Source of the DNA: Vermamoeba vermiformis
Taxonomy: Eukaryota
NCBI GenBank assembly: GCA_045837725.1
Contig: JBEWZL010000077.1
Span: 434,001 to 498,000 of the forward strand
Length of the DNA: 64,000 bases
Direction: 5' to 3'
The notes below the pieces were generated by a model. It was not told the origin of the DNA. It saw only the letters and a program-made list of their open reading frames with translations, and searched no databases. Numbering within the stretch: the first letter of the stretch is position 1; every line of letters begins with the position of its first letter. Below, piece by piece: positions 2,801-59,444 of the stretch. A program made the translations under genes and the position numbers.

Positions 2801-3100
2801 GCTGGAAATCTATTATTGCGGATGTGGATAGAATTAATTTAACATTAATATTAATAATTCAATAATTGTACAAGGCTTAACTTTAATTCTCACCCAAACG
2901 TAAAATAATTAAATTTGCGCCTTAGTAGGATATTTACCGTTCTGTTATCATCCTCGTACGTCGCGTGCCAGAGTACGCAGGCGGTATGAAAAAGGAAAAA
3001 AAGTTTTTTTTTCGAAATTTCAGCACGGCAAAATCACAAGGGGTTCCGCCGTACAAATATTCGCGCTTTTTATTCATATTTTATTACACGTTAGAGCAAA

Positions 3101-5086
3101 ATGAACGCAATATTAGATTATGATATCGCTTCCGCGTTAAATCAAAGCGGCGCATGCGATTATTGTCACAAAAGGAAGATGCGCTGCGATAAGCTAAAGC
3201 CTCAATGTTTAGAGTGCTTAAAGCGAAGTATTCCTTGCAATTATGGAGTACGTCGAAAACGAGGACCTAAAGCAAAGAAACAAAAAGAGACTACAAAGCC
3301 AGCGACTCGGATTCAAAAAGCAGCTAAATCCAATTCTCAAGTTCAAGCGCTTCTATTCGAGTTAGAATTCAATAAGAAAATGGTAGAAATATGGAAGAGT
3401 ATTTCTTTGAATGAAAATGGCAATTTCAGCAATGCTAAACGATGTCGGCCAAAGTTCGATCCCGCCACTGAAGAGTTTATCAGATCACCCAATGCAGTGC
3501 AGACAATAATGGCAGAATTTGATGGAACATTCAGATTAGTATTTTATATGCCTAATTATGCAGCAAACATGGATTTTGCAACGAAGATCTGGCAAGCGTT
3601 GATTGACATTTCCGCAGGAGATTTACTTACAATGCTAAATACATTCGAATCGACACTACTAGCGTCCATATTAGAATATTACGTAGTTTTCATGCTTAGT
3701 AAGTTTTTTTGAAAGATTTTAATTTTGGATCTTTATTTGATCTGACAACAATTTAATTTCTTATAGGTCTGAAACTATCTAAATACAACGATATCGCCGA
3801 ATACGTATCAAGAATTGCCAATTATGTATTTGATTTGTTAATTTACGCCAGAGAAGATTACCTCACTTCGTACGAACAAACAGAGAAATTGCTCGCTGAT
3901 TTAGCCTTTGCTGCGCATTATTATAAGCTAACAAAAAATCACCACGCATTAACAGTCAATTCGTTCATATCGTGCGAGCTGTATAAAGATGCCAAGAAAA
4001 AATGGAAAATGCATAAAGATCTGGAAGCCAAGTAAGTCGCCCTAGTTTATAAATTAGTATAATATAACCACAATTATTGATCTATGATAATCAGTACTTT
4101 TTGCAATATCTAGCAATTATTTAAGAAATAAAATAAAAGAACTAATTGTATTATTCTTCAGGATGATCTGCCGAATGATTATGGCTGCTAAGAATGAAGA
4201 AGATCGAAAAGCATATGTTGATGCTATTAATGAATTTGATCCCGCCGAGGTCAGTCAAATTTTGATTTAATTTGTCGGATCCAGATCACTTACGCGCACG
4301 TTCTAGTTGCCAGCGCATGTACTTTTTATGGCTAATATATCCGTAACTATCGAGTCACTGCATAGCCAACAAAAGAATCTGGGGTAAGTCGCTGGATCCA
4401 GAACTTAAGTTCAATGCTAATGCGGATCTAACACGTTCTTTAGTGATGCAAATGTGGCTATTCAAAAAGCCAGTTATTTTGCCAAAGCGTTCATATTGCA
4501 AAGCAATGTCAGCGACCAAGGTCCAGTGGAACGCTATTATGATTCGTGGACTGGTGTCGTTCATTCTGAAGTTGCGATCCGGTCAGGTGACATTGAACTT
4601 TCACGAATCAAAATTGGACGACTATTAGAGTCATATTCAGTGATGCCAGCTCCTTTGCAACGATTACTCGTATCTAACATTGAAGTAAGTGTCACTTTTT
4701 GACACGTGTCAGGTGTCATCTTTTGGACTCGGATCCTGCGAACACGTTTAGCTAACGGTTGTTTCTTTTAGTTCTTCGAACACTCAATGAACGACCATAC
4801 CTTGCTAATTAAAGATTTCTTGCCGATGTTAAAAAACCAAGGCGTCTCAATGACACGAACATTGCCGTACGCGATGCTTTTGTCGACGACTTACCAACGA
4901 AAGAGCGATAGTGAAGAGGTCAGCGATAGTAGCAATGAGATCACCTCACCGTCTAATATTGAGCCACAAATGGGCAGTTCAAGCGAAGAAATTGCTGCAG
5001 TGTCAGAGTTCTATGATGTTAATGCAGATCCGTTTTTCGAATTTACTGACTTTGACAATAATATCATATTTAATACTAATTTGTAA
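3101..5086 (+). CDS. Zn(II)2Cys6 binuclear-cluster transcription factor, 5 exons
   Basis: ACDYCHKRKMRCDKLKPQCLECLKRSIPCNY matches the GAL4-type spacing. It is followed by a basic RRKRGPK segment and an acidic C-terminus; GT-AG introns link the ORFs. Confidence 0.9.
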
Positions 5087-7473: not shown

Positions 7474-9518
7474 ATGGAAGACTATCCAGAGCTAAAAATC
7501 AGATATCAAGTAGCTTATGCGACAAAATCAGGAGCGAAATGTAAAACAGCTCATTGTGAGCTGCCTCCCATGCAAAAGGGCGAGTTCAGGATCGGAACGG
7601 TAAGTCTTGAAAAAGTTACATTATTTTATTGTTGGATGTTCGTCCCAATACCATCAATTATCGCTTTTTTCCTGCACAATCCTAGTGTAAATAATTTTAA
7701 ATACTTAATTTAATTTTTTAACGGCTCTTAGACTGGATCTGTTCGAAGCTGGTTTCATATAGACTGTAAGTATTATTAAAAATATTTATAATAAAATACT
7801 TACTTAATTCCGTATTATTTGAGACTGTTTTCATTTCTAGATCTAATCTGTAATGACGTTGTAGGTTTCTTCAAGCGCGTGACTGCAGATAGAATTGCAG
7901 CAATTAAAGGTGGATTTATAGGCCGTGAAAATATTAAGCCAGAGGATTTGGCAAGATTAGACGAGTTATCAAAAAAGACTTTAGATGAGTTTAGCAAAAA
8001 ACGGAAAGCAGAAAATATTGAAGAAAAAGATGACGGACGATGGCCTAAAAAACCAAAATATGATTATTTGAGTAATATAGAGCCACCGAAGTTATTAAAC
8101 GATAATTTAGTGGAGATTTTAAGTTACTTCAAATCCCACATCCACATTTTACGAGCACTGGCATTGGTCAACAAACAATTTTATCAAGTAGTGAGATCGA
8201 TCATGTATAAAGATGGAGCTGGTGTGGCTAAGCGCGTATTATGGAATATGGACGATAAATGGATGGATTTTATTCAAAATTTTCAAAAATTATCGATTCA
8301 AGAATCATCGCATATGAAACATCATTGTGACGTAGAGGAAGATGATGATTATAATCGCTATTTAAAAGTGCTAACAAAATTATCAAATTTATCGTCGTTG
8401 ACTTGGCGCGCTAGCGAATCATACAAGGTCCAAATAACAGTATCAACCCGATTAACGCAATTATCGGAGCTTATATTTGATTATTTGGATGTATCCGAAG
8501 AAGAATTGCTGCGCTTTACGACATTAACGTCATTAAAAAGTTTAAAGATTGATGGATCTGGCAATTTTCAACAAATGGACCAACTTGCGTCATTCGCGAC
8601 ACAATTGAAGGATCTAAAGATAGGTCGAGATTCTTTTAATCTGCGTAAGTAGCCTATTTTATTTAGAAACAAAAGGCTTGTTATTTATTTGTACCGGTCG
8701 TTACAAAAAATTTCCTAATTTGGAAAGTTCTTAATTTTTTGTTTCTATAGGTCTCTTTACTAATCTCGAAAGTTTGGACATATCTGGATGCAAAAGCCGG
8801 GTTGATTTCAAAGAGATGATTGAAAGCTTGCCTAAATTGGTATCGCTCGTGGCCTATAACTTCGCTAGCGATATGTCTAAATTGACTTCGGTGAGGCATT
8901 TGACTTTATTGAAGAAAACCAACACTGCGGACAAAAATCACGATATTACGGCCTTTCCACCGAACTTAGAATATTTTAAGTGCTTGTACGAGAATATTAA
9001 GTGCGAATTTCCGCCGTCAATTCAATCAGTTTATATTGGTAGAATAGAGAACGAATTATTTTGGAACGATATCGCTCCTAACGAGGCTATGTTCGAATCA
9101 GTAATGGCAGCTGTTTCAAAATTACGTAAGTACAAAAAATTACTTCCTAATTTACAAGAAATAAATTCTAATCATCGCGGTTTTTATGCTAGGCTGTCCC
9201 GTAACGCTTCAATATATGAACATTGACATATTCGACGAGAAACCGTTCGCTGTCGCAGCTACTAATCCTAATTTAATCATTATTATGGAAGAAGATCGGT
9301 ATTCCGAGAAGGTCCTTGAAAGATTTACCAAATTTGCTGCCGAAGGGCCGCTGCCAAGCAGATTAGAGATAAAATTCTACGGCTGGAAAAAAGCGGCGAG
9401 AAAGAAGAAATTTGGTAAAGTTTTGGAAGAATTAAGCCAGAAAATAACATTACGTGTCGAATATGAAGATCGTGGGCAAGTATGGCGACCGTATGTTTAC
9501 GACCCCTTTGCCTATTGA
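7474..9518 (+). CDS. PARP-type zinc finger + F-box-like + leucine-rich-repeat protein
   Basis: YQVAYATKSGAKCKTAHC...GEFRIGT...WFHIDCFF (zf-PARP); LLNDNLVEILSYF...LALVNKQFYQVV (F-box-like); then LxxLxxL repeats. An intron at ~9128-9192 joins the last two ORFs. Confidence 0.8.
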
Positions 9519-12358: not shown

Positions 12359-12730
12359 TGCGATTGCTATTGATGCGACGGCAATCAGTCCTATCAAATA
12401 CAAATAAAAATTCGTATTTTCGGATGCGGCCCGATCTCACCTCTACAAGCTGCCTCCATCTCTACTAGCTGCCTTGTGGTACGTATTCAAATCTATAGTT
12501 CTTCAGTGTCGTAACTAACTTTCCGTCATGATTGCGCATCTACCAGGGTCAATTACCATATTTAGCTGAGCGTACATAAAGTTTATTGTACAAAATCGCG
12601 ATTTACAAAGCATTATTGTCGACAGTATTGAATACATCATGTTCTTATTGATTCTATAGCGATTGTGAAACCAAAGATTTACTTTCGAGCTTGCGAAATC
12701 TGGAAGCCATCGATTGATCAAGACTCGAGA

Positions 12731-15700
12731 ATGAAGAAGCGTCATTTAGGCATCTTTGGATGGAATAAAAAACGGCTATCTGAAAAGAAGTCGAAGGTGA
12801 ACTCCAAAGAGCTGAAACCAACTTTGAAACAGTTGCACGATGCGATCTACGAAGAAAAGATAGCACAAGTTAAACAAATAATAGAAGCGGACGCAGAATT
12901 AATAAATCAAAAGAAAAATGCCAGGACTGCATTGCATGTTGCTGCTAGAAGCGGAAACAGCGAACTGGTGGAATTGTTACTCGCTCATGGAGCCAACCCG
13001 AATATTGCTGACGATGCGGGATGGACTGGCATTCATTGTGCAGCATTTTCTGGAAATCTAAAAACGTTGGAAGCGCTCATTAAAGACAAGAATGTGAATC
13101 TGGCCGTAAAAAATGCGGACGAAAATACCGCCTTGCATTATATAGCAAGGCATTGCATGGATGTGCCTGATTCTATCCTTAACGAGTTCATCAAGGTTCG
13201 TATTATTTCTTATATGATATTGCATTCGTTCAAAAAATCTCGATAGCAGCTAAACTTTCGGATCAGGGGGGAATCGACGTGAACGCGCGGAATTCGAGTG
13301 GCGAAACCCCGCTGCATAATTCTTGTTGGAAGGGGAATGTTAGGATAACAGAATGGCTGTAAGTAATGATTTAAAATTTTAATTTGTACTGATCTTCCGC
13401 AGCTTAAAAAATAAAGCAAACACTGAAATACGGACCGACAAGGTAATCATTTAATATTAGAGTCTGTCAAAATATTCTAAAGTAACATGCCTCTTTCATA
13501 GCAAGAGACGCCGTTGCATTGGGCTGCAAGAGCAGGGCAAACCAAAATTGCCGAAATGCTGATCGCAGTAGGTGCATCGTTAACTGCCTCTGGTAAGTCG
13601 GAATACTTTATGTGAGTATAAAATATATTTATACATATTCTTAAGGTATTGAGGGAACACCGTTTGAAGTTGCTGTACCGATCGACAAACTAAAAAAGAT
13701 GCTCAAAGTGGATCTTAGCGCAGTCGTCAAAAATACACCAGAAAGCAATGCCAACAATAATAACAGCCTAACGATAGGAAGGCGCGATGTTAAATCAAAT
13801 AGCGTTGGATGCGTCGAAGACGGTACAAATTTATTGACAAAAACGCTTGATATTCCCTCGTCAGGTTCGTATAGCATCACACTGACCTCATATCTCTATT
13901 TTACTCGTATTAACGTTAATTAGGATCCTCCAAAATCAATTTGTTGAATTCGCCAATTAAGGCAATTCCACCGTTATCACCAACGGCTCCACGAACGAGG
14001 AGTAGCAGTTTTAGCAAGGCTAGTAATAGATTATACCTTAAAGATGAGCTATCAACAAATACGTAAGTAATTTTTGAAAAAAATTGTTACAAGCAAAGAT
14101 CCGCTTCGTCATTATTTAGCCAGCTTAAGATCTAATACCAATTTTCATTTTAGTAAATCGGACAGCCGTATTAAATTAGAAGGACAAATGAGAGCCACAT
14201 TAGAGGCAGAATTAATCGACGAGCTTGTTGAATTCTGCAAGACCAACTCATTGCTAGCGATTATTTCAAAAGTATTAGAATCAAAATCGTGGAGTTGGTC
14301 AGAAAAATATGAAGACAATAAGATTGAAATGCTTAAATGGATTTGCGAGTTCGTCGAAAAAGACAAAAAATACCAGTACGTTTAAACGACTAACTATTTT
14401 TGTATTTGGCGTAGTACTAATGAAAATTATAACGATAGATATTTGGAATATTTATATCTGAAATACAAGGATAAGATCAAAATTGAAGTCAAAGATACTG
14501 ATGAGTCGTTCTCTGACTCGGATGAGCATTTAGCATTTAGCAGTGCCTCGTTCGATTCCTTGGATACTTCAGACGCAGTAAGTAGCATAAATATAACATT
14601 AATATTCCTTAGGCCTGTTATTAATGTATTTTGCTAGTTTACTTCTTCGCCTGGGACTTCAGTTTCATCGGCTGATGAAGGTTACATGAGGAAATCCAGG
14701 CGGCTGACTCTACGCGAAAAGAAATTAACGCCATATAGTTGGGAATTAGATTTGAACGAGTGTATTGCCAGCGAAGTTATAGGTCAAGGCGGATTTGGTC
14801 TCGTGTACCGGTACGAAACTTATGACCAGCATTAGATATTCAGTAATATTTAAGCTAATGATTTCTATTATTATAGAGGTTCATATAAGAACGAAGAAGT
14901 AGCGATTAAGCAGTTAAAAACCGATGAGCTGGGCGATGACGATATGATGGCTTTTCTGAAAGAAATCTCAATTATGAGCTCGTTGAAACACGAGAATATA
15001 TTGAAATTTAAGGGCGCGTGCGTGGTAGATGTTATTTGCTTAGTTACCGAGTTCGCGCACAAAGGAGATCTGCGCACGTACTTGCTGAAGAACCAAGTGG
15101 ACACGAGCAGAAAACTCGACTTTGCTCTTCAAATAGCCAAAGCGATGGTAAGTATCATAATGTTGCTATTATTGTGCATCGTTACTAAGTATTGTTCTAG
15201 CACTATTTGCATTCGCAAGATCCGCCAATCGTCCATCGAGATCTGAAATGTTCGAACGTTTTGGTCGATAAGGATGACTGTATTAAAGTGTCTGATTTCG
15301 GCCTGAGCAAGCACGCGTCGAGCGGTGGAAACACGCGAATGGGCACACTGAATTGGATCGCGCCAGAAATTCTCAGGAACGCTGGACCCTTCACTGAGAA
15401 AGCGGATGTGTTTTCCTATGGAATTGTTGTGTGGGAGATTTTCACCAACGGACAAATACCATACCAAGGGCTACAACCTCTACAAATAGTTCGAGCCATT
15501 GACGAAGGCGTACGACCTGAAATGTAAGTCACTGATTGCATCCGGACCTCGCATCTATTAATAATTGCTTTAATTTATTGGCGCATTTGATTAATGTTTG
15601 TTATTCTAGACCTAGTACGGTGGAAGAACGAACAAAGAAGTTAATAGAGCAATGCTGGGACGATGACCCAGATCAACGACCTTCGTTTGTACAGATAATT

Positions 15701-15739
15701 TCAATACTTGAAAATATTATCAAAAATACTAGGCAATAA
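12731..15739 (+). CDS. Ankyrin-repeat TKL (tyrosine-kinase-like) protein kinase
   Basis: Ankyrin repeats (TALHVAA, TGIHCAA, TALHYIA, TPLHWAA). Kinase motifs IGQGGFG, VAIK, HRDLKCSN, DFG, GTLNWIAPE, CWDDDPDQRPSF. Confidence 0.9.
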
Positions 15740-15817
15740 AATCCTCGATAAAACAATAGAAAAAGAATATTACAGATTTACTTACTGGCGTAGATCGAGA
15801 AACAAAAAAATTTTGAA

Positions 15818-15914
15818 TGGAGCGCCGCTGAGTAGAGCGGATACCTTGAGAGGTTGGCCAAGACCGCCGAAGCGGAATTCCCTTAGAAAGGGACTCTAAG
15901 TGCACGACACCCCA
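15818..15914 (-). ncRNA. Putative structured small RNA of unknown family
   Basis: GC-rich island in AT-rich intergenic DNA. Terminal stem TGGGGTG/CGCTCCA encloses four hairpins, including CCGC-TTCG-GCGG. A T7 tract follows, and TCCCACAA lies about 60-66 nt upstream. Confidence 0.6.
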
Positions 15915-15971
15915 ATAACATTGACGTTGCCACATCTAGACAAAACTGAGCGCGAATCCGTTGAAAATTAG

Positions 15972-15980
15972 TTGTGGGAC
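15972..15980 (-). promoter_or_regulatory. DUSE/USE-like snRNA-type upstream element
   Basis: GTCCCACAA on the minus strand fits the Dictyostelium DUSE consensus WCCCAYAA and the plant USE core RTCCCACA, at the expected spacing from the structured RNA. Confidence 0.55.
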
Positions 15981-16363
15981 GGATATCTGCGTCATGGTGT
16001 CAGTAAGCAAACGTTAAGTGTTATTGTTGTTTGCATTATGTTGCTTGTAAAATTGAAACTGCGGACAAAGAAAATCTTTTTTTTGTGAGTCAAGAGGAAA
16101 TTTGACCAGCGTTCAAGATCAGGACCACAGCTAGCAGTATTTAAGCTTGAAAGGTACGCGATTGAACATCTTAATTGTACTCTTGCAGTTTTCTGCCTCA
16201 TGTAATCTATTTGAAATCGTTATTGAATTGGAGTTATTATTAGATGTGGCTAATTTCACATCAAAAATATTAGTCAATCGCTTAAAATCACAACGATGCT
16301 AAATTTATTGTCAGATCATAGTTTTGCCCTGTTAGTAATTTTCTTTACAATTTTCATTACCAG

Positions 16364-19266: not shown

Positions 19267-20712
19267 TCACCATCGCCTAAAATTCATATCAAAGCTCGTA
19301 GTTGTCTCTTTTGCATTGGTGTTAGTGAGCATAATCGCAGCGTTGAAGTAGATATTGTCGATTGCATCTGCCATTGACTCGTTGCCAGTGTGCTCAGCTC
19401 CGATTTGCTTATGTTTGTACACTTCTAAGCCCTTCTTGTTCCAAAAGAACACTGTGCCCGGTTTGTCCGTCTTAGGCACTTTTTCACCACGTATCATTCG
19501 CGCCATGTCCTCGGTTAGGAAGCGATAGACTTCGCCATGAAGGGAGTAGAAAGAATGGGATGAGCTTGAGTCGTCCGTGTAATGTTGACTGACGACCACG
19601 GGAAGAAGGTCAATAGTGAACGAAGGCTCTTTTGACAGCTCTTCTAGCAGTACTTTGTCGTTGCCTTTGAGACTCTTCAACGAGATGCCTTTCTGAATGT
19701 AATCGAACTCGGTCAAAATTCCAATATGTCTGAACGGACAACGCTTGATGTGTTTAATCAACGACGCAATATTGTGGTCCAATATGAGTGGCTTGGTGCG
19801 GTTGAGAGTGATAGCAAGTTTGGTCTTTCGAACTGAATCGTTTTCCTTGCAAATGTTGTAAGTCAATGCAACGCGGTATCCTTCAATCACTGGCGTTATT
19901 TCGTGCTCTCTGTCGCAGAAAAACGCAGTCACGCTGTTTTTTTCAGTGAAAGTCTCGCCTCCGTGACGAACGACCAATTTTCCACCTTCGTGTGCTCCAC
20001 GAAGCCTGACAACCATCGTGCCAACCATATTCGGGTACCGCGGAGTGTCTTTGTGAGGTTTGAAATGTCCTCCGACCTCGTACAAGTTCAATTTGTACGG
20101 CTCCAAGTACAGCGTGTCGTCTTGGAACTCGTCTTGCACGCGTTCTAAAAGCTTCAATAACTCTTGTTTGTGATGGTCTACGGGAGTCTTCGGGTCAGAC
20201 CGACTGTTCCATGCAAGTTTCTTGTAGAACACAATCCTGTCGTAGTCGATCGTCAGGCCAGATCGCACATCCGGATCTACTTTTGTGGTCATCGTTTTCA
20301 AGTCGCCAAATGGAGCGGGACTACATTGCTCCTTGATTTTATTGATGTTTAGCTCCCCATATCCATCGCAATCAACGAGTGTGGTTCCATCAGCGGATTT
20401 GATCTGCAAACAAAGTTCATGAAGCTCGGTATCGCCAAGATTGAAAGCGAATTCAAAAGATTTGTATGCGTTCCTAATGGCCAATCACAAAGAAGAAATT
20501 TGGGCGTCGGACGGATTGATGTATATATATTTTTGCTTCGGCGCATTTGCATATGGATCTTCTTCTTCTCCTTCCCAACGTAGGGGTCCAGATTCTTCGG
20601 CTAAATTTCCGAGGCAAGTACCATAGTCTTCGAGTTGGTTAAAGAGATTGTAGAAGGTGTGGTACTTGAGGACTTCTTCGGTCGATGCTGGATCTACATT
20701 AAAGTTCAGCAT
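19267..20712 (-). pseudogene. Intronless 2OG-Fe(II) oxygenase interrupted by one in-frame TGA (pseudogene, readthrough or sequence error)
   Basis: YKLNLYEVGGHFKPHKDT (HxD), EHEITPV and GYRVALTY are intact. ORFs 20485-20712 and 19267-20484 are in the same frame, separated only by the TGA at 20487-20485. Confidence 0.7.
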
Positions 20713-22417: not shown

Positions 22418-22619
22418 AAGGCCAAATGATATTTCAGTGATACATATAACGTATTACATATCATTATTATGGCTTATAATTGTAATTCTAAATTAGTTGG
22501 AGCGATCCGACTCACCTCAAAAAATAAATTTCATTCAATTCAATTCTAATCTAAAGTTCCTCATCGATATAGCATTAACAATGAATTATTTACCTTATTT
22601 ACTGATAACGAGCGCTATC

Positions 22620-26128: not shown

Positions 26129-29100
26129 TTAATCATCCTCAGCAACAATCAACGACTCGCGATCCTTCTTTGAAGCCTTGCTACTGGCTCGCGAAAGTTT
26201 GCCGCTCTTAGCACCACCTTCTTCAGTCAACAATTTGTCCAAGAGTTCGTTCATGGCAGCACCAGTGTCAGCCTCTTCGAATTCATTGAACGCCTTGCGC
26301 AATCTCTTTTCGCTTCGTGCGATGTGTTGTTGCATGTAGCCCAAGGCGTTGGTTTTGACGTTTTCGGGCACTTCGAGTTCCATATGCATGTGAGCGGTGT
26401 GCACTCTTTCAGGGTCCTATAATCAAATACATTAACACCTATTATTATACCAATCATACATTTTCTTAAGGCCCTCGAGTAGAATATAAATATGATAAGG
26501 CCGCATATTTTGATGATATCCTAGTATGGAAAAGTACGTACCAAGAGTGAGGTATAGAAGTTTTTGATCTTGGGAATGTTGCGGTCAACAAAGTCAGCAA
26601 CTTTCTCCATGTATTGTTCCTTAGTATTGACTGAGGCCATGTTAGCCAAGTTCTGCAACACTTTAGCGATCAAGACCAATTGTCTTTGCACGACTTCGTT
26701 GGGGTTTTGTTGCAACAGGCCGTAGTATTGAGGAGCAGTAATAGCCGGGCAAATGAATCGCAAGAACAAGAAGCCTCCGACTGCCTTGTAGACGGCGTCT
26801 TCTGAACCAAATCGCATCTTGATGGCCGATTCCATGCGCACGAAAAGATCACGGAATTCCCTGAAAAATACGTTAGCCTATTTGATCTGCTAATTTTTGG
26901 CAAGTTTCATGGTACTTACGAAGGCACGTTTTGTTCGTTCTTGATAATAGCACTCAAAATCTTTTGACAGGCAAGAGCAAGTTGAATAGCGTTAGATTCA
27001 GTATCAGCATCGGGGTTGCTCAACTTGTTCGGATCGAGCTCCATTTCAATGTTCAACAAACTAGCGCCGTTTTCAGGGTCTTCGGCGACAGGCGCATCTC
27101 CGTCAACATTGGCTCCGGGACGAGAGAAAGTCGAAAGTTCGTTGATGACGGTGGCCAAAGTAAAGTACAAGTACTTAGTACCAACCATTTTAGAGTAGAA
27201 TCTAATAATAGCTATGATTAGTAACAGCTTTCTATTGTTAAAAAAGAGTAGGTGTCACGTACTTGAACATTTTGCTGGCCATAGAGTTCTGACGGAAAAT
27301 TGTGTTTTCACTGCCAGAGTTGATAATTTCAGTCTGACAGAAGTACTGCAACACTTCGGATGAAATGCCACGTGATTGGGCCAAGAAGATGACAGCACGT
27401 GCTACAGCGTCTTGTTCCGTGGGATTGGTGATATCGAACAAAGTCGACAAGAACGTACGGTCTTTGTTGAGCAAGATATCCTCCAACAATCTACAAAAAC
27501 ATTCATTAGATCTGTTAATATCAAGATAGAGGCGTATATTACGTACTTGTTATAATCTCCGTCTTTGAATTGTTCTTTGGAGTCGGTCTTAAAGGCGACT
27601 TCAACGTAGTCAGGCTCAACGACCGTGACAACAACACCTTGTCTTCTTCTTCTGCGACGAATGAAGAAGATTGTCAAGAAGACCGCACCACCTGCAATGA
27701 CGGCAGCGGCAATGACAACACCAGCAATGAGACCAGGGTTCGTTGCGGCAATGACGCTCGGGTCTGAGCATTCACCAGAACCCCAGCTGTCAGCGGCACA
27801 TTGATCGGCTGACGAGCACTTGTTGTCAGAGAAACACCAGTTACACAAGTTCTTCTGTTGACATCTGTTACAATCCCTCTCGAGACTGCAATCTGTAGGC
27901 GAATAATTAGGCATTGGTATTATATAAACTGATTGAGTTGGATCGTACCGAGATACTGGAAGTCGATGGGACCAGCAAGAATAGTGCCGCGATAGATAAT
28001 TGTCAGCGGAACAATGCCATCAACAGCTACTGAAGGAGGTGTGCAAGTGATGCTGCTGTTTGATCCCGTAAGAGCATAAGCAGGAACGCTAGCGGTACCG
28101 AATTGGCAGTAGAACGGCGAGTCAATCGTTGATTGCAGTACACTACGACGAGACTGGGTCGTGTTAGGTTGCAACTTGTCCAAGATCTCCAAGGGTCTGT
28201 TGAAGGACACTGTGATCGGCTCAGTGCCGTTCAGAGTGACAAAGGTGGGCGTGACACTGAGAGACAAGCACGAGTCCAAGAAGATGCCTTTTGAGCTGCA
28301 TCGGGCCTCACCAACACACGTCTGATCACCGACGCACCAACCGCAGCCAGTTTGAGACATGCAAGAGTCACCGCATTGCGAGATCGACGTAGGATTGCAA
28401 CCGAAGAACGAAAAGTTAAGACTTCTTCCCGTGTAGTCTGCGTTGTTGAGCAAGACACGGAGCTCAACTGTGCCAACGGTGTTGCGCGTGCTGTTGGGAG
28501 TGTAGCACTGCACAAAAGTGTCTTCTACGGTGACGACAGGCTGGTGAATATCGCCGAAAGCGCAAGACAAGAATGCAATGTTGTTTTGGAAGAAAGGACC
28601 GCCATAGATAGTCACCAAATCGCCACCTTCAATTTCACCTCCTGTAGGACGAGAACGCTCCAAAACTAAAATAAGACATTAGTTATGTGAGCAGGAGTTA
28701 GGTTAGGTCCCTCTATTTACCTGGACAGCTAGTAAGGGCAGGGAAACCTGTTGGGTTGCAATCAAGTGCGCAAGATCTAGCGCACCAGCCGCATCTAGGC
28801 TTTTCAGCAGTGAGGCACGTGTCGCAAGTAGATGAATCAGTGCATTCTTAACGAGTGGTTAGTAATCACAAACTGATTTGATATAGTGAGAACGACTTAC
28901 TGTAGTAGTAGAAAGGAACAGGATTGGTGTAGGCAGATCCGAAGACTTGGATTAAGACTGAACCTGTGCCAGTGGTCGGTGATGCCGGTGAAATACAGAA
29001 GACGTTGCTACGAGCAATGTCAACGAATGTAGCTTGTGTCACGACAACATTATTATCTGAAAAATCGTTAGTTTTCGGATCTAAGTTAGTCGGTCAGATC

Positions 29101-32100
29101 TTACTTGGCAGAGTGAAAGAGCATGTGACGTCGGATATTTGAAGGCTGTTGAATGAAGTTAAGCTGAGCGGACCATTCAAAGCAACGTTTTGGCCGCCAG
29201 AAACTTCATCACGGTTCGGCGAGGCAGTCAACAAAACTGGGTTACTCGCGTCAGTACACGGATCCAAAATTCAAGTTTTATCACTTACTAGGGCAACTCT
29301 CGACTTGAGCAATAGCTGCTGAGCATGTACTAGTATAGAGCTTGCAGCCAATGCCATTGGCTTCAGAGCTGCACCAGCGGCACTTGGGTCTCAAGACGTC
29401 ATCAACGCACGTGTTGCAAGAAGCACCCGTGCAATCTGAAGCACGAAGAATATTTAGCCTATCGATACATAACTCGTCATTATATTGAAGCCGTACCATA
29501 AATCACGTAGCTGATATCTGGGGTCAGTCTGACTGTGTTGTCTTTCCAAACACTCAACTATAAGCAAAAGTTAGTTCAGTGAAACACAAATGTAGCTAAG
29601 TAAGAACTTACTGAGTGAGTACCGAGTGTCAAAGTCGTTGGAAGGGCACATGTAACGTTCTTAGTACCGCTGTTGTACGTCGCGGTAGTAACTTCAGATG
29701 CGGTGGACAAACCGGTCGCGTCCCACGCGCAAACTAAGCTCGCGAACTGCGCACCAGCAATCAAGAAATCTCCTGATAAAGTGACAGTAGGACCGCTAGC
29801 AACATCGTCTATGTGCGTTGAAGGAGGATAGACCGCAGTAACGACTAAAAATAGCATGGATTAGCGGATGCGAGTAGTTTTGGCGCGGATCTTTAAACTT
29901 ACCAGGGCAAACGGTTAACGCAGTGCAAGTCGTAGTGTTTTTGTAATTGCAAGCGCTATTTTGGGCGCTGGAACAGAAGACGCATTCGGGTCTAGTCGCT
30001 TCGTTACAAGCCACGCAGTATTGGTTTACCGTTGCGCAATCTAATGAATGGAATTTTCTTAACTAGGCAACAAAAAATAAACATTGAATGCAGATCCGGA
30101 ATTACCATAAAACATGAACGTTGTGTTGGTCGTAGCATAAGGAGCTCCGCTGTAGTAAAGAGTAACGGGTACATTCTTATCAACGGCTCCGTTTCTTTCC
30201 GTATCAAACGTAGTCTTGTCCATTTGAGGAGATAAGCACGAGACTTGGTTGGGCGGAGTAATTGTTGCTATAAATAGATGCGTTAATTAGGCCTAATTTA
30301 ACGTGGAAAGTTACGAAATTACGTACCTGGAACTCGTCCAATAGTAGTCAAGTTAAAATCGCATTCAATTGACTCGCTGCCAGTCAGATCTGGTTGAACG
30401 TTGAACGTTACACGAGAGCCTATCGATTAAACGTCATTAATAATTATACTTTTGTCAGATTGAAGCCTTTAGACACTTACTGGTGCGAATAGATGAGCTG
30501 GCAGGTGAAAATGAATTGACCGCTAATAAAGGAATAATTAATCAATAGTTTGATGAATATACGCTTATACGTACCAGGGCAAGTTCTCAAAAGCGAGTCC
30601 GTGCAATTAACAGCAAATCTGCATCCACCAACTGACGGGCACCATCCGCAACTTGGATGTAAGGACAAACAAGATCCGCAATCCAAATTGTTATTGCAAT
30701 CTACGGATCGAGCTGTTAGTTCGCCACTTATAAAATAATAAATATTATGCTAATCATACTTATCACTTGAACAGAGGCTGTCGTATCAAAAGGCAAAAGA
30801 GCATCAACATTGTACAATCCGGCAGTCCAAGTTTTAACGGCCGGCGATAATCCCGCTAAAAAAAAGGTTAATAAAATGGTATTTGGAATATATGATAATA
30901 GTTTCTTACAAAAGCCATTCGTTGGAAGGTCGCAAACAAGTTGAAACGGAGACAATGAAAGAACGTTCGAGAATCGTGTACCGTCACCAGTCCATCTGCA
31001 GAGAGCGCTCAATCGATCAATTCCAGGAACAGGATAACTGCCGTTGAATGTAAGGTAATTTCCTCCCACCATCGCCGTACGATTTAACGAAGGCTGATAA
31101 TCGATGGGGTTTGGTCGGATTTCGGCAGAAGCTGAAAAAAAATATTAACAAAAATGTCGCTTAGTGGTCGCTAATATTCTTACCAATGCACTGTCTGATA
31201 TCGTGTTCACCAGCACCTTTCCAATCAGGACAAAAAATACTGTCGAAGCGAGTTTTGCATTTGAGCGAGGACCAGCAATAGCCGCTACAAATATTATTTT
31301 AATAATTTTATATAGTAATAATAATATAAAGAGAGTACTAACCAGTATTCTGGATCCAATTGCGTGCATTGTGCGCAAGAATAAAAAACATTATTGACCT
31401 CAGTACTGCATCCTAGTCATGATAAAGTTATTAAGAAATGATACTAACATAGCATATTAAGCTTAATACGTACTGGTATGAGTTACGATGACCAAATTGA
31501 CAGAGGCTTGCGTACGACTTGCGCCAACGAGATAAGCGTCGGTATTCGGAATGGCGTAAAGCGCTCTAATTTCAGGATAGATCAGGACAGCGGGAGAGAC
31601 GGAAAGATATTGAACTGAGCTGAATGGCTGGAGATTTCGCAGATTGACTCGAACGACCATTGCGCGGTCTGTGGCTTGAGCTGTGTCATAGAAAGTTGCG
31701 GCCCAAAAAGAAACATCGTGGCCGTAATCTAATGAGATAATTAATTAATAAGATAACTTAGATGTATAATAATGCAATTAAGGGGTACCTATTGACGCAG
31801 CAGTGAGTTTTGTACGAGGAATGAAGGAAAAGCGAGTGAATACGAAATCAGCCGGAGAAATCTCGAAAATGAGACCAATGTCTGTGCCCATAAGAACTCT
31901 AGCGCGAGTAGGATCAAAGGCAGAGCACGTGACCTAGCAATATTATGTTATATATAAAGAACAATAAAATAATTATTATCGAAAACGCACTTGACCGAAA
32001 CCAATAGTTTTGCTTTCAAAGAAAGAGGTGATTAAGCGAGTGTTGCTCGTTGGTGTCTTCCAAATACTTCCTCCAGCTCCTCCCATTAAGATCTATAGAG

Positions 32101-33304: not shown

Positions 33305-36300
33305 ATGAAGTATTCACAGTGTATTTTTATCGCACTATGTTGTGCATCATTATGTTATTTGGCGCAAAGTCAAGATATTGGATTACCAACGGCAGGGATG
33401 AGAGTAAGTGATTTTAATCGAATCTTTGCCACCATATCGTGCACGAATATCACGTCGATGAATTAAAATTATTTGATTCATATTATTCATAATTTCACTT
33501 GCAACAAAACAAAACAAATTGGATCTATAAATAACTCCCTTTACAGTTATCACCCAAAAATTATTTGCACATACCCTTTATCTCCAAGTAATGCCTTATC
33601 GCTAATTGCACGTGTTATTAGGTCTCAAGCTATCCCACATTCCAAGGCGCCAAATCTATCAAATCCGTTCTGTCCTTCTCATTCTCAAACGGCACTCGTT
33701 TCTTCCTTTGGGGTGGCAATAAATTACATATGGTAAGCACCATGCAAATAGCATACATTTCTGTGTTGTGTACGCCAACGGTACACGCGCACATTCAAGA
33801 GCCGCAAAATTTTTATTATGTAGCCACCTCTGAATCGTAAACACCGATGGATTACATATACTCATATAATACTATAGAGCAAAGATACTCCCGATGCCGT
33901 TCCTACGGATTTATGGACCGCTCCATCTTCGTCAGACTTCATCCAGAGCATTAACTACGACGACAAACGAAGTTCAGGTAAATAACCAATTTAATTAAAT
34001 TATACAATATTATTCAAGTCGATTCGTGAGCTAGAAACACTTGGAGTAAGTTCTAACGGATTTGTTTTTTGAAATCTAGTTCTCTTCTGCACCAATGAGC
34101 GCACCTTGTGGACTTATAGCTGGCCCAACGGTCCTGCAACTCAAATTGCTTTCGACCCTGCCACTCAAACGGATCCTTTATTAGTAAGTCTCGCGCGCAG
34201 ATTCGTTCTTCAGGATCCAGTTCTGAGGCTGACTTTGTTCTAGGGATGCATCTATGATTCAACGAGAGATAATTTGTGGTTCATTGCAGGAGGAATTGCT
34301 GTTTCCAAATCGCCAGTTACGAGCAGTAAGTTGGATTCGGGATCGAGCCGTTTCGGCATTATTCGTGCCATAAGGCTTGTTTTAATAAGCATCTTCACAT
34401 AGGCGCAGGCAACACAACGGCGTTCACTACCTCTTTACCATTGAGCGGTGTCTCTTCGATTGTTCTTGACTCGCAGAATGGCAATGTATTGTGGACCTAC
34501 GGCACGGCTCAAGTTCAAATGACGCCGCTTAGCAACGCAAACTTGGACCCCTCTTTCATCTCCTCGCAGTCGTTGGGCATTGGTAACGTAAGTAACAACC
34601 ATGAGACTCGCATGCCATCGTAGAGGAGCATTTTTTGAAAGATCTGAACCAACTTTCCTTCTCGCTTAATTGTGCTCCTATACATAACTAAGCACGCTCA
34701 GAGGCCACTCTTATTAATATGGTTCTTTTATGTACAGATCTTGTCGAGCGCTTACGATCCGGTTCAACAAGTCGTCTATTTGGGAACTGACTTGGGTATT
34801 GGTATTGAAGTATTAACCGTACCGTCATTGGCATTCTCTAGATACTTCATTTTGCCCAATATGCAATACTCATCAATCACCACTGGTATGACTCACATTA
34901 TTCTTTTTTGTGGCTTCTAGAAGATTTAATTAGTTTGCTAATGCTACTTTATAGACCCCTCGCACGGAACCTCATTTTGGGCAGGCTACCAAAACACTTC
35001 CAATACTCAATTCGTTGTTAGAGTTAACGCGGATCGCTTCTCGCCTTTTTCTGCGGTTTCAGTCACTGGCACTGATAGACTTGGTCCTGCAGCTATTGTT
35101 AACAACTTGAACTCATTGTGGACACCTTTCTTCTCACCATCCAGCGCACTTTTCGCCAAAATTCAACTCACAGGTAAGTTCCGGATGCAGCAACAAAGCT
35201 GAATTTTTCCTAAACTTACGCTTTATATTTAGATTGCGGCCTTTACGTCTGCCAACAATGCCTTACAAATGACCCTCAATATTGCGGTGTTTGTTCATCA
35301 GGTCAAGTTTGCACGCTCTCATCTGCTTGTTCAGCCACCTGGCAAACTTCAGGCACGATCAGTTGTCCCGTTGCTGGTGCAGTTGTTCCGCGATCGGGCG
35401 GTACAGAAGGCGGTGATCTTATAACTATTACTGGCCAATTCTTGGACAACAACGAGCTTCTGGATGCGTCTCAAACCACGTGCACTTTTGGATCCGCTGA
35501 TCCCGTTACTGCCTCAACAGTTGCAGCTACTTTTATCCAATGCCGCTCTCCTGGTTCAACCGGTACGTAATACATTACGAAGCATTAATCAAGACGTTGC
35601 TAATAGCCAAAACTAGTCGCGGGCCAGGTCAATCTACAAGTGCGTTACAAAGGCAACAACTGGGGTTCTGCATTGAACTTCACTTATATCAGTAAGCGAC
35701 CATTAACTACGTACTATTTGAACATATTAACTAATCATTTAAAGAATGCGGTGACTTCAGCGGATGCGACGTTTGCACGCGCAATCTAGGTTGCGGTTGG
35801 TGCATGGCTAGCGGTCAATGTACTTCCTCTTCAGCGTGCAACCCCTTGTCCACATGGAGCACTGTCTGTCCTGCTATTTTGGGCATTGCTCCTGCTCAAT
35901 CTTCCATTCGTGGCAGTAAGTTTCTTAAAGTTTCAAGAACTGGCCTACGCGGAGTTTCTTATCGAATTTTGTTTTTGCAGACGTTGTCGTTCAACTTGAC
36001 GTTGTTCCGCAATTGACCAACGAAATGCAATACAGCTGCGACTTTGGATTTGGATCTGGCGCTGTTGTGCCTGCTACTTTGGTGTCTTCATCCAAGCTCT
36101 CGTGCTCGACGCCAACAATCAACTCAGCAACTTGGACAGCTATGCAAGGCAACACTAGCGCTGTGACATTAGGCGCGTACTTGACCTCCGTGTCTCTGCT
36201 TCAAGGTGGCAAATACATCACGTCCTCAGCCCCTCAAACCTTTGCCATTTATGGTAAGCTACTCGACCTCATTTTTAAAGCTTTGAACTTACCTTTCATT

Positions 36301-39300
36301 GGTAGATTGTCCCACTCAATCCAAGCACTGTGATGGATGCGGCGGTGTCGCTGGCTTCACTTTCTCCGAGTGCAAGTTCTGCTATGACTCGGCTGTCACT
36401 CAGTGTCAGTACTCCGATGGAAGTTGCACGGACTCGTCAGGCACTTGTCCCAACATTGCCTCATTGACCCCACCCAGCATGCTACAAGGAGACTCGAGTG
36501 TTACATCAGTGGCACTTAGTGGCTTGTTCTCGTTCACTGGATCTACTCCCATCACCAATCTTGTCTGCATGTGGGACGTAGAGAATACGGCTACCGCGGC
36601 CAATGCTCAAACTGCCTCGGGCATCACAGATACTTCTATCACCTGTCCTGTCCCTGCTTCGTTGCCTCTTGGCACCCATACTGTAATCCCATAATAGATG
36701 CTCTAATTGTCGCTTACTAACATTGGTACAGGTGAGTGTTTGGCGCGATGAAGGAAGTGGATCTTACTCTCGTATTACTTCGAACTCTGACTTCCTCGTC
36801 TACGGTAAGTGTTTCTATTGATAATATACTACATGGTGTCTCACATACTCCTAGATTGCTCTGCTACTGGTCCTTGTTCCTCGTGCGTGTCAGATCTCAA
36901 GCCCAAATGTTACTGGTGCAGCGCTAGCGGACAGTTATCGTGCAAACCAATCGCGGATTCATCGTGCTCGGCTAGTGCTATTACTAACAGCACTCAGTGT
37001 CCAGGTAAGTTCCGAGTTAATTAATTTTGGCGGGATTATTCCCACATCAAATCTTTTAGATTCTAGTACAAAAGTGTCAAAATTAACTTTAATTCGTCAT
37101 TAACGTCAAATCCAATCAATCTAACGCTTTTTTTCAGTCTTGACAAGTGTGACACCGGATGCTGAAGAAGTCGCCGGAGGATCTGCGCTTACTTTAAGCG
37201 GATCTAACATGAAATTGCTATCTTATTCCAATATCAAGTGCCAGTTCACCAATGACGTCGATAATTCAGTTCAATTAGTGGCGGCATCTCCTCCTGTGAA
37301 CGACAACCTTTTGCGCTGCAATGCTCCTAGCGTTAGTACTGCAGCTAACTACCACATAGACATCTTAGTTGGTACTGTGACTCACACGAATAAGATTCCT
37401 TTCATTTATTACCGTAAGTTTACTTCCACCCAGATCGAGCACGATCCGTTACAAATCTTAACTGAGCCTTATAATTCATGCCTTACAATTGATTCGCATT
37501 TTCGTTGTTATTGCGTCGTTGGAAGCTATTTTTAACTCATTTTCTATTCTAGAATGTTCTGCTGAACCTAGCTGCGCGAACTGTCTTGTTGCTCGTAACA
37601 CTCGCTGCAAATGGTGCCTTGGCTCGTGCGCGACACAATGTGCCGTGCCTACTCCTGTCACATGCCCAAGTAAGATTCAAGACTTAATTTTTCTAGCATT
37701 ACTAACGAGTTTTCTAGAAATCAACATTACGGATCCAGTCGAGTCGTACAACAAGGGCGGTCAAACCATACGTGTATATGGTGGACCGTTCGTGAGCTCA
37801 ACAAGCTTGACCTACACGTGCAACTTTGGTGGTGAATTGGGCGTTGTCACTAGTGTTTCTGACGCGCACCTTGAATGCTTGACACCGACACGTGGTGGCT
37901 TTGCTTCGTTCGAGGGTAATGTGGACTTGACTATTCTCGCCAACGGTGCGCCGTACACTGAGGACCCGTACCCCTTCAACTTCTTTGGCTGTCCTATCTT
38001 GCCTTCCGCTACTGCTTGCGGCTCTCAATGCACAGCTCGTTCTGGATGCGGCTGGTGTGTCTCGCAGTCAACGTGCACAGTCGACTTTATGTGCAACACC
38101 GAACAAGACTTCTTCATTGACAAGTGCTACAGTACGTATTAGCTTATAAGAAACCGATCCGGATCTAACTTTTTTGCCAGATGTCACTGTGACACCTAAC
38201 GTCATTCGTGCTGGCTCGAACCAAACTATCACCGTGCAGTTCAATCAGCCCTTGCCTTTCACATTCACATCTGATCCTTTCTTCGGCACGACGACCGGCA
38301 AACGCTCGATCTTGGCTAGTACTTCTACAAACCCGACGATTTCTTGCCGATTTGGCAGTGCTAGTGTTGCTGCTGTCCCGAACTTGAGCAACAACCCCGA
38401 TTCATTCACGTGTCAGTCCCCTGTCATTCTTCAAGAGGGTAACTTGCCGTTCACTGTGCTCTGGAACGGTAATCCGCTCGTCGAATCGGTCGACTTCCAA
38501 ATCACAAGTACGTATCACTTTTGACGCTACAAAGGCCGCGTATTAATCTTATTCGTTTAGACTGCGGTGGCTACAACACTGATTGCTCGCAATGTATCCA
38601 ACATCCTTACTGCAACTGGTGCTTCGAGAGCAACACGTGCTCAGAGGCAGACATTTGCGCAGCTGACAAATGGGGAGGAGCTCAATGTCCTTCAGTCATC
38701 GAAACTAATCCTCAAGCACGTGCTGGCCTCATTGCTGGTGTCGTGATTGGTGGTGTTGTGATCATTGGTGGTGTCGTCTTTTTGATCTTGTTCCTTCGTT
38801 ACCGCAAAAAGAAGCAACAGGGTCTTGTCGTCGACTTCAAAGAGCCCGATTACACCGAGGTTGCTTTCAAGAACGAAGTCACCCTGCAGTACAAGATTAC
38901 TGCTAAGGACGACTATGAGTATGTACCTAAGAGTTGTTAAATTTTTCACGTGATCCGGATCTGACTTTTGTACAGGGAGTTGGAGAACATCTTGATGAAC
39001 CGTGACCGTACCTTCCTCAAGGCTGTAGCTGCGGTGACAAGCGCTACTGAAGATGATGCTGTAAGTACAAGATACTGTTCATAGAGCCATGAGCTAACCT
39101 CGTGAAACATAGGTCTCGCGTTCTTTGACTTTCATCGCTCACAAGCGCAAGGTGGCCTCAGACATGATTCAATACTTCGCCTCCGATGAGGTTATGAAAG
39201 CTAGTAAGTAGTCTCAGTTATAATTGTCCTACTGCACACGACGCTAACTTCATTTTAGAATCCGAAAACACAATTTTCAGACAGGACAGTTTGTCCAGTA

Positions 39301-42861: not shown

Positions 42862-45800
42862 CTATTTAGCATAAGACTTCTGGCACTTCTTAAGATTCTT
42901 CACTAACATAGCGAATGACGGTCGTTTGTTGGGGTTATGTTTGGTGCACAAACGGATCAGATCCACAAACGCGGGGAATTCACGCTCTAACTCAGGAGGC
43001 ACTGGAGGAGCATTACCTTCCTATAATCGAAAAATAAATCAATAAAGTTAAACTGTTCCAGCAGCAAAATCAGGAAATGAAATTTGACACTTTGACACTT
43101 AACGGATTCGGATCGATTGACAAGTAAATCGTATTGAGTTAAATATAGAAGTGATTGACAATGCGTTCTATATGAATTTCAAAGCTTACCTTGACGTCAT
43201 CAAGCGATCGATCAGGCAATCTGTTCATCAACAACTCCCACAGAATGATACCAAAGCTGAACACGTCAGCCTTCGCAGTGTAATTACGTGAAGTCAATAC
43301 TTCAGGAGCCATCCAGTTGTATGTTCCCGTAGCGATCGTCATGTTTGTTTCGGCAGTACGACTTTCACCGAAATCAGCAACTTTCACTGAAAGATTGTCG
43401 TCGACCTACAGCGGATCCGATTAGTCAGATCTAATTTTTTCACAGAACGGCAGTTTTGACGTACCAACAAGTTCAAGCTCTTGAGATCACGATGAATTCT
43501 GTTGTTGCTGTGCAAGAAACTCATACCACGAGCAGCTTCAATGGCCATTTGAATCTTTTGGCCCATTGACAACCACTTACGACCGTCCTTGCCCTTTGAA
43601 AGGTGGTTAGTACTCGACAGTTGCCATATTTGGTAATCGTACTTGTTTGCCCAAAAAGCCGTCCAAACTGCCGCCAGAAGCGAATTCAGTTAACAAGAAA
43701 GCATTGCCAGGCTCAGAAGCACCTCCGATAAACATCAACAAGTTCTCGTGGTGAAGCAATCTGTACACGTGTAATTCCGCCAAGAAGTCACGTGGAGGTG
43801 GATCTCGTTTACCCAAATCCCAATTCTTGCACGCCACTAAAAAGGTAAGTTAGATCTTAGTTGATCTGATCCACACTTTGCGTGAGATCTACATACCTTT
43901 AGCGCCATGCACACCGGCTAAAAATACAGAGGCACTAGCACCACCGCCGAGACGATTAACAATTTCAACGGCCTCTCGCGGCACGTGCCAGTAATCGTCT
44001 ACGGCACCTTGGAGAAGTTGCGTGGCTGAAGCAGATACTCGCAATGGGAGTACGAATGATTCGATCAAATCGCTTTCCTCGACTAAAAATTAAGTAGCAT
44101 TAGGCACTGTCAAGGAATGGACGAAATTTCGTGGACTTACTTTTGAATGTAAGAGTCAAAAGTTTTCGCAGATCAAGTGGTTTGTACAACACGACGGTGA
44201 CCTTGATGACAGTGTTCTTAGGATCAACTTGACCCTCGGCAGGACTAACAGCCATAAAATATGAACGATTGAAGTCTACGGAGTTAGGCACAGTGCAGGT
44301 AACTTTTCCTTTCCAAGAGTTCGTGACTTGGACCGAGAAAATAACAGGCTTGTTCAATTCGACGTTTTTCTGAATTAATTGGTACGATGATATCTAGAAA
44401 AATATTTAAATTAGTTTAGTAAATCAAGGTAAAATGTTTTTGAGATCCGGATGTACCTTGATAGATGCGGACTTTAACTTCTTCTTAGTCTTTGAATTCT
44501 CTGCGTAATAAGTCTTATGTACTTTCTTTTGAATTTTTTCGGTTTCTTCAGGGGTCATATTTAACATGGTGTCCAACAAAACCTTCGTTTCATCAGCGTT
44601 GTACTCGGACTTGCAACCCCTACACATCGAATACATTAATCAATCTATACTATCCATATCGATATTTATGTATTAGATACGTACTTGAGCAAGTATTGAG
44701 TAAGTTGTTCTTCACCTGAAAATAAGTAATGGTTAGATCTGGTTGAAAAAGTTTGGATCAAGCATTGGTGACTTACCGAGTCTTTGACTGGGACGCAATG
44801 GCGGGAAGACTTTAACGTTCTTATTGTTATTATCAAGGTCGTTGAGCAAGGCAACGGACAAGTAACGTTCGCTTTTTTCTTCGTCTTCAGTCTGAAAGTA
44901 GATGTAGTTAGTGGATGCGGAGCTCAATTGAAGCGGAATAATTTTGTTTAGCTTACCTGAGACAAAGACACAGCGTTATCGTTCTTGAAAGGATATTTAC
45001 ACCAGTTGCTATTCACACGAATAAAGTCGTCAATGTCCGCGTATCTTTTGTCTTCGAAGGCAAGTTCAGTGCCACCCACACGCTTTACATACATTAGAAA
45101 CCATATGAAAATTACTATATGGCTACGCACCTCCAAGCGGTAGTTCATGATACCCTCGGGCAAGACTACAGACAAAGTGTAACAGCCAGGCAAGCTGCTG
45201 AAGCGCACGAGGAACGTGCCAACAGGCTCGTCAGACACGAAGTACTTTGTTTCTTCGACATCAAAATCACCGAAGAAGAATCTAAGGTACATATGTATGA
45301 GTCTTAAGCACGCCATTGTAGTGAAGTGTATATGCACTTACGGCTTGCGTGCCATCTTGTCTCGGCAAGGTGTGATGAAGAACTGTGAGTAGTGCTGCAC
45401 GACGTGAGTAATGGACGGGAACAACTTCAATGTCTCGCCACCATCTCCTCCTTCACGCATACCGAACCTATTTAATAATAAGGTTAATTTTGTGGTGCCA
45501 ATTTACCTTTGCGGACGTACCCTCCAGGATGAGTTTCGACTTTCAGTGAACCGACCATTTCTCCAGTCTTGTAGTTAATGGCAAATGAACCAGGATCTGA
45601 CTTGCTGAAACGAACCAAAAATGTTCCGTGCTGCTCCGGTTCGAGCAACTTTTGAGCTTCAGCGTTGGTCAAGAAACCGTGGAACCATTCTTGTGTCATC
45701 ACACTGCGCACCTTGTCGAGCGATTGTGACAAAGGACCGAAGCCCTTGAGGAATTCAGCCCATTTGTACACGGTCACGAAGCCAGTGTCCGAGTTATCTA

Positions 45801-59200: not shown

Positions 59201-59232
59201 AAAGTGAAAAATTGATTGATTTCGATTTGTAA
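50234..59232 (+). CDS. Very large alpha-helical protein, probable EPG5-like autophagy tethering factor
   Basis: About 25 or more exons, over 2000 aa, helical composition. Motifs reminiscent of EPG5: PFWEQFFRIYF, IPCYQGEDCVSPALV, LPWQD. The start codon is uncertain. Confidence 0.55.
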
Positions 59233-59444
59233 TAAATACTATTGTTTTTACCTGTATTAGCGTTACTAACAGATATTTATCGATATCAAAGTAAAATGGA
59301 TCGCTATCGATAAATGCTCTAGTTACTAACTGGATCCTGTAATAAGTATTCAAATTCTAGAATTTTTTTTTAAGGGTTATGTAAAATAAACGAAGTGCAT
59401 AGCTACTTAAATTCGTAAATTTTGTCAATTTATTGTTTTTTTGA

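Follow-up and report, generated by a model that had tools for sequence, protein, structure and literature searches.

The 64-kb stretch of DNA analysed here (the window) is eukaryotic, with a GC content of about 40% and short GT-AG introns, and the candidate RNA gene described below lies in a spacer of about 1 kb that extends from an ankyrin/TKL-kinase gene to the next plus-strand gene. The former is a multi-exon ankyrin-repeat TKL-type protein kinase gene (12632-15739, plus strand) whose last intron (15525-15609, GTAAGT...TAG) measures about 85 nt and whose product ends in ...CWDDDPDQRPSF...TRQ*, with an AATAAA overlapping the stop codon; a homolog search with a kinase exon returned one match, which carried no name. 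Its stop codon (15737-15739, plus strand) is 65 nt from the T-run of the candidate, to which the kinase gene is convergent, and the ATG of the next plus-strand gene lies at about 16752. The candidate fold is on the minus strand, opposite to both neighbouring genes, in a spacer in which the longest stop-to-stop frame is at most 68 aa. The predicted RNA body has a GC content of 0.577 and the flanking spacer 0.308 and 0.354; over the whole stretch from upstream motif to terminator (15804-15980) the value is 0.48, against 0.31 and 0.35 outside, and the GC island as such covers about 190 nt (15804-15990), which is longer than the 97-nt fold. No target-site duplication or direct repeat was found to flank the candidate, so there is no sign of a retroposed copy, and no paralog was found within the 64-kb window.

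Elsewhere in the window, a Zn2Cys6 binuclear-cluster transcription factor is encoded at 3095-3709 (plus strand), an F-box/LRR-like protein at 7795-9223 (plus strand) and an intron-free, 405-aa 2OG-Fe(II) oxygenase (PF13640) at 19270-20484 (minus strand). The oxygenase has 11 homolog matches (best 67% identity), only three of which are close (56-67%) among 5.8 billion proteins; these matches are annotated as 'hypothetical protein' or have no annotation. Its neighbours in the protein atlas are fungal clusters of similar length. Together, the Zn2Cys6 factor, the F-box/LRR protein and the oxygenase (the nearest atlas clusters of the latter two being mostly fungal) may give the gene content a fungal flavour, which we treat as a weak lead. 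Two large cysteine-rich genes in opposite orientation (27405-31144, minus strand, and 35929-38937, plus strand) contain IPT/TIG and PSI (plexin-repeat) domains and probably both encode surface proteins. A series of exons at 50704-60693 (plus strand) apparently forms one large gene, with a Pfam match in none of the seven exon fragments scanned.

The features of the candidate, all on the minus strand, are as follows.

15971-15980, minus strand: DUSE/USE-like putative promoter element GTCCCACAAC, a pattern match that contains TCCCACAA
15818-15914, minus strand: predicted RNA body UGGGGUG...CGCUCCA, 97 nt, GC 0.577
15904-15914 (5' strand) and 15818-15828 (3' strand), minus strand: predicted terminal helix of 11 bp, on which the minimum free energy (MFE) and centroid structures agree; 4 of the 11 pairs are G-U
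15880-15892, minus strand: predicted hairpin 1, CCCUU-UCU-AAGGG (MFE/centroid)
15864-15875, minus strand: predicted hairpin 2, CCGC-UUCG-GCGG, with a C(UUCG)G tetraloop (MFE/centroid)
15839-15859, minus strand: predicted hairpin 3, GG-CCA-ACCU-CUCA-AGGU-AU-CC, interrupted, with a CUCA loop (MFE/centroid)
15804-15810, minus strand: T7 run, 7 nt beyond the terminal helix; putative Pol III terminator or, alternatively, U-tract of an Sm-like site (AAUUUUUUUG)

On the minus strand, the body begins with TTGGGGTG and ends with CGCTCCA, the closing elements TGGGGTG and CGCTCCA occupying 15914-15908 and 15824-15818, respectively. Its MFE structure, which is identical to the centroid structure, runs from the 11-bp terminal helix through a 5/4-nt internal loop and a second helix of 6 bp to a four-way junction with three hairpins, and the inner junction resembles a cloverleaf. 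The predicted free energy is -37.7 kcal/mol, against -27.6 kcal/mol for the plus strand over identical coordinates (a second folding run gave -38.5 for the body), and 5 of the 32 pairs in the minus-strand structure are G-U. Given the greater stability of the minus-strand fold and these five G-U pairs, any RNA made here would be a minus-strand RNA. The preliminary description of the locus had proposed a multibranch fold closed by TGGGGTG/CGCTCCA and bearing four hairpins (TCCCTT/AAGGGA, CCGC-TTCG-GCGG, ACCT/AGGT and CCGCT/AGCGG); all of these elements are present, but the five-way arrangement is not the best one (-30.3 against -37.7 kcal/mol), as the CCGCT/AGCGG hairpin gives way to long-range pairs in the MFE structure. 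A longer stretch of 187 nt also folds, at -52 kcal/mol.

The body is followed, on the minus strand, by TTCAAAA and the T7 run. The terminator-like or Sm-site-like sequence that had been described after the fold is indeed found there, as AATTTTTTTG at 15812-15803 (minus strand), with the T7 run within it at 15810-15804. Such runs are common, as the two strands of the window together hold 40 runs of at least seven T and 117 of at least six.

Upstream, TCCCACAA is located at 15979-15972 (minus strand), that is, at positions -58 to -65 if counted from T15914 or -59 to -66 if G15913 is taken as +1, which agrees with the earlier placement of an element 59-66 nt upstream; the spacer between GTCCCACAAC and the RNA body is 56 nt. 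The octamer fits WCCCAYAA, the consensus of the dictyostelid DUSE, which may not be that of the present host. In dictyostelids, snRNA and Class I genes have the DUSE ([AT]CCCA[CT]AA) some 60-63 nt upstream; the element is used by Pol II as well as Pol III genes, and many Class I genes are followed by T-runs (PMC7919456, PMC3188802). The window contains four matches to WCCCAYAA where 6.13 are expected (85 of 100 shuffles gave at least four), and the other three sites fall in coding/exon or intron sequence. From this density, the chance of meeting the motif within the required spacing window of about 16 nt is estimated at about 1 in 1000 (<1e-3), a value that carries meaning only on the premise that this organism uses the motif as a promoter element. 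The plant snRNA USE reads RTCCCACATCG, and plant snRNA promoters require a TATA box at about -30 (10.1101/2025.01.12.632625). With this USE, GTCCCACAACT agrees at 9 of 11 positions, the whole RTCCCACA core included, and, as the core is common to the plant element, TCCCACA is not peculiar to Dictyostelium. No TATA box was found in the 126 nt upstream of the candidate, and no internal A or B box within it (the best matches had at least four and at least three mismatches, respectively). At vertebrate SNAPc promoters, a TATA box selects Pol III and its absence goes with Pol II (PMC6004067). Of the snRNA-type promoter that had been proposed, the motif match at the right spacing thus stands, but its density in the window is that of chance, the 126 nt upstream have no TATA box and the host is probably not a dictyostelid.

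The searches for known RNA families returned nothing that would name the candidate. With Rfam 15, no match was obtained at the gathering score or at E ≤ 1 in the window, or at E ≤ 10 in the 126-nt candidate, and the three weak rows obtained (E 1.2-9.1) belonged to other positions or to the opposite strand; ARAGORN called no tRNA or tmRNA gene. The hallmark single-stranded motifs of the major spliceosomal RNAs are ACUUACCU for U1, GUAGUA for U2, the loop GCCUUUUAC for U5 and ACAGAGA for U6, and these are absent from the candidate, the best matches having 2-4 mismatches. A box C/D snoRNA would call for a C box (RUGAUGA), which is matched with three mismatches at best, and for CUGA, of which the candidate has no exact copy; as to H/ACA snoRNAs, no ACA was found near the candidate 3' end, and Rfam gave no snoRNA match. 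The best match to the Class I motif (CCTTACAG or CTTACAGC) is ACTTAGAG, with two mismatches, which is at chance level (expected about once in two tries, by estimate).

Several specific identities were considered and set aside. For a tRNA or a tRNA-derived SINE, ARAGORN and the Rfam tRNA models gave no call, and neither A/B boxes nor flanking direct repeats were seen. For tRNA-Sec, there was no Rfam match, and inspection by eye found a 9-bp acceptor-like stem, but neither a D arm nor a UCA loop of 7 nt, and the arms are in the wrong order. The spliceosomal snRNAs (U1, U2, U4, U5, U6, U11, U12, U4atac and U6atac) had no covariance-model match, E ≤ 10 included, and loose resemblances to U5, U1, U11/U12, the TPP riboswitch, HDV-like ribozymes and the CR-I region of RNase P were likewise accompanied by no model match. 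Given that no Rfam, tRNA or hallmark-motif match was obtained, no spliceosomal snRNA fits the candidate, nor do U6, 7SK, Y, vault, RNase P/MRP or tRNA-Sec. The preliminary description, made by eye, had left the gene unassigned after comparison with U1-U6, U11/U12, tRNA, tRNA-Sec and Class I RNAs and had called for an Rfam search; both the search and the motif comparison leave it unassigned.

How far these features depart from chance depends on the comparison. Shuffling gave the candidate fold a z of -3.65 (0 of 200 shuffles equally stable) in one test and -3.29 (1 of 200) with independent shuffles. We scanned the window in 12,782 segments of 100 nt (step 10, both strands). Nine of the 30 best-folding loci elsewhere in it, mostly coding or intron sequence, reach a lower shuffle z than does the candidate. 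The better 100-nt folds (z -3.9 to -4.5) include those at 57081-57180 (plus strand), 9321-9420 (plus strand), 43821-43920 (minus strand, spanning an intron of a minus-strand gene), 22421-22520 (plus strand) and 59231-59330 (minus strand). After GC correction, the candidate scores -3.09 in its best register, a value equalled or undercut by 19 of the 12,782 segments, the candidate being register-optimised in this comparison and the segments not. A scan anchored on runs of at least six T, with the same register choice at every site, places the candidate first of 115 for how stably the 100 nt upstream fold (z -3.09, next -2.61); among the best 15 of these sites it also has the highest GC content. 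The window has 36 CTTCGG sites, three of which, that of the candidate included, form C(UUCG)G hairpins with a stem of at least 4 bp. The fold alone, the motif alone and the UUCG hairpin alone are each within chance in this window; their combination with the other features exceeds chance and is unusual.

Two cDNA RNA-seq runs labelled as being from the same species (about 13 million records each, roughly 46-48% of the run) yielded no read on 15700-16150. The sole reads obtained were six partial matches of less than 90% identity over a conserved kinase motif (15652-15689), which probably derive from paralogs, and the neighbouring kinase exon likewise had no well-matching read. As this exon is equally uncovered and the libraries (151-nt cDNA) are poorly suited to a 100-nt RNA and would lose it, the result weighs weakly against a polyadenylated transcript of high abundance and is hardly informative on a small RNA. 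A lookup of sequencing runs for the locus listed no RNA run, and the DNA runs that it listed are metagenomes and what is probably the source sample.

Near-identical DNA (at least 99% over most pieces) for 15550-16131 was found in contigs of water and freshwater metagenome runs (X5 and X6), which indicates that the organism or a very close strain was present in those waters. The X5 and X6 contigs show a single polymorphism within the RNA body, 15856 G>C (plus strand), which falls in the unpaired CCA bulge of hairpin 3. Because the flanks are as near-identical as the body in both copies, there is no sign of selective conservation. One metagenome contig has 15969-16049, motif included, replaced by 83 other letters (81 in the window); a further contig lacks 2 nt at 16033 and has flanks that differ. 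Exact-pattern scans of metagenome, prokaryote-genome and viral collections found no homolog, the sole metagenome match (L001) sharing only the pattern and being unrelated; as such scans need about 21-24 exact bases and eukaryotes are absent from two of the three collections, these blanks carry little weight. For the proposal of a structured RNA gene, the strand asymmetry, the GC island, the paired ends and the T7 run thus remain in its favour, but the fold is not exceptional in the window, and the searches yielded neither a transcript nor a paralog or homolog.

Comparison with known systems shows partial likeness in several directions. Dictyostelid Class I RNAs are 42-65 nt long and have a short terminal stem. 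The candidate is like their genes in having a DUSE-type motif about 60 nt upstream (a match only, at chance density in the window), but differs in its length of 97 nt, its 11-bp terminal helix and, in contrast to the clustered Class I genes, its occurrence as a single copy in 64 kb. It also resembles dictyostelid DUSE-driven non-coding RNA genes in being intergenic, with paired 5' and 3' ends and a T-run downstream (PMC7919456, PMC3188802), but lacks the conserved motif of about 11 nt, of the CCUUACAGCAA type, that is described next to the 5' stem of Class I RNAs (PMC3188802). Dictyostelids other than D. discoideum are reported to be only about 10% richer in GC than D. discoideum, itself notably low (PMC12929561). 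The window differs from dictyostelids in its GC content of 40% and in the possible fungal flavour of its gene content, and on this basis we consider that the host is probably not a dictyostelid.

In plant Pol III-type snRNA genes, the USE is spaced at about -60. The candidate is like plant U-snRNA genes in combining a nine-of-eleven match to the USE (GTCCCACAACT) with this spacing, but, unlike these genes with their TATA box at about -30, it shows none over the 126 nt upstream; nor does the window contain anything that points to a plant or an alga. A broader likeness is to the RNAs with type 3, gene-external Pol III promoters (for example, Y, vault, 7SK, U6 and tRNA-Sec), which have a terminal stem, a length of about 100 nt and a T-run terminator that leaves an oligo-U tail. 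The candidate shares this length, a helix that pairs the 5' and 3' termini, a T7 run 7 nt after that helix, a putative upstream promoter and the absence of internal boxes. It departs from type 3 genes, which combine a PSE/USE with a TATA box at about -30, in having a PSE/USE-like motif and no TATA box, and from Y, vault, 7SK, U6 and tRNA-Sec in having no Rfam family match at E ≤ 10.

The sequence features, the bias of the fold towards one strand and the lack of a known-family match are all observed. From them we suggest, at somewhat less than even confidence, that the locus is an independent, minus-strand gene for a stable orphan small RNA, non-coding and about 100-107 nt in length. This proposed gene, which is single-copy in the window, would most likely be terminated by Pol III at the T7 run, and its RNA would serve as an RNP scaffold. 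Transcription, the polymerase, the RNA ends and any function are what we infer in this proposal, which can be laid out as a series of steps. A SNAPc-type factor would bind the GTCCCACAAC element at about -60, transcription would start at G15913 or T15914, and RNA polymerase III would stop in the T7 run, leaving a 3' oligo-U tail. The RNA would then fold as a rod (that is, the 11-bp terminal helix joining its 5' and 3' ends, the internal loop and the 6-bp helix) capped by the four-way junction with its three short hairpins, one of which carries the C(UUCG)G tetraloop, and by analogy with Y, vault or Class I RNAs it may be the scaffold of a small RNP.

The most serious competing explanation, which we hold to be quite possible though well short of even, is that there is no RNA gene, and that a GC-richer intergenic piece happens to fold near a common T-run with a common 8-mer at the right distance. 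That 9 of 30 other loci beat the fold, that the motif has four sites where 6.13 are expected, that the window holds 117 runs of at least six T and three UUCG hairpins, and that no TATA box, internal promoter, Rfam match, paralog, homolog or RNA read was found are all in keeping with chance; moreover, the candidate was singled out by eye in a scan of very large extent, which can be expected to bring up rare conjunctions. Chance accounts less readily for the first rank among the 115 T-run-anchored folds, for the presence of the motif in a spacing window of about 16 nt (estimated probability <1e-3 from its density), for a strand asymmetry of 10 kcal/mol that is carried by G-U pairs and for a GC island closely bounded by motif and terminator (0.48 against 0.31 and 0.35).

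Two further alternatives would assign the locus differently. The island could be part of an antisense or upstream transcript, a GC-rich protein-binding promoter or insulator for the downstream gene, or a decayed tRNA- or SINE-like relic, and its extent of about 190 nt beyond the 97-nt fold, the folding of the 187-nt stretch at -52 kcal/mol, its position about 770 nt upstream of the ATG of the next gene and the cloverleaf-like inner junction would suit one or other of these; we nevertheless judge such an origin improbable, since there is no tRNA call, A/B box or flanking direct repeat, the strand of the fold is opposite to that of both neighbouring genes, and no RNA-seq read covers 15700-16150 in the two runs. 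A Pol II gene of the Sm class, in which a TATA-less PSE-like element would drive a very divergent minor or major spliceosomal or U7-like RNA that extends further, with AAUUUUUUUG as an Sm-binding site and not a terminator, seems to us very improbable. The Sm consensus is RAU(3-6)GR, to which AAUUUUUUUGU is close, and in U1 and U11 a closing helix that bears three hairpins precedes an Sm-like site, a layout that the candidate resembles. The lack of an upstream TATA box, which goes with Pol II at vertebrate SNAPc promoters (PMC6004067), also fits such a gene. Against it, no snRNA family was matched at E ≤ 10 in the 126 nt searched, and the U1, U2, U5 and U6 hallmarks are absent (2-4 mismatches at best). 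Inspection by eye found no convincing 3' stem-loop after AAUUUUUUUGU, the only possibilities being a hairpin of 7 pairs that is AU-rich and contains a mismatch, and a stem of 6 bp around some 47 nt. A longer transcript would enter the 3' end of the convergent kinase gene.

In its present standing, the proposed orphan small RNA gene is a lead and not a finding, and, should the conjunction prove to be one of chance, it would illustrate that a fold seen by eye and an 8-mer are insufficient as evidence. A wider claim, which we regard as rather doubtful, is that the candidate is the first example to be seen of a family of RNAs of about 100 nt that is specific to its lineage, probably made by Pol III from a TCCCACA-type upstream element, in a poorly sampled and possibly fungus-related microbial eukaryote. 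If this were so, the DUSE/USE-type snRNA promoter would work outside dictyostelids and plants, could do so without a TATA box and would serve an RNA class absent from Rfam. If the gene itself is real, it would provide a small orphan RNA whose architecture is clean (terminal rod, four-way junction, UUCG hairpin), together with a hint that the TCCCACA-type element is common to a third eukaryotic lineage, and the combination of motif, spacing and T-run would offer a handle for further small RNA genes in this genome, the same approach by which the dictyostelid Class I RNAs were found.
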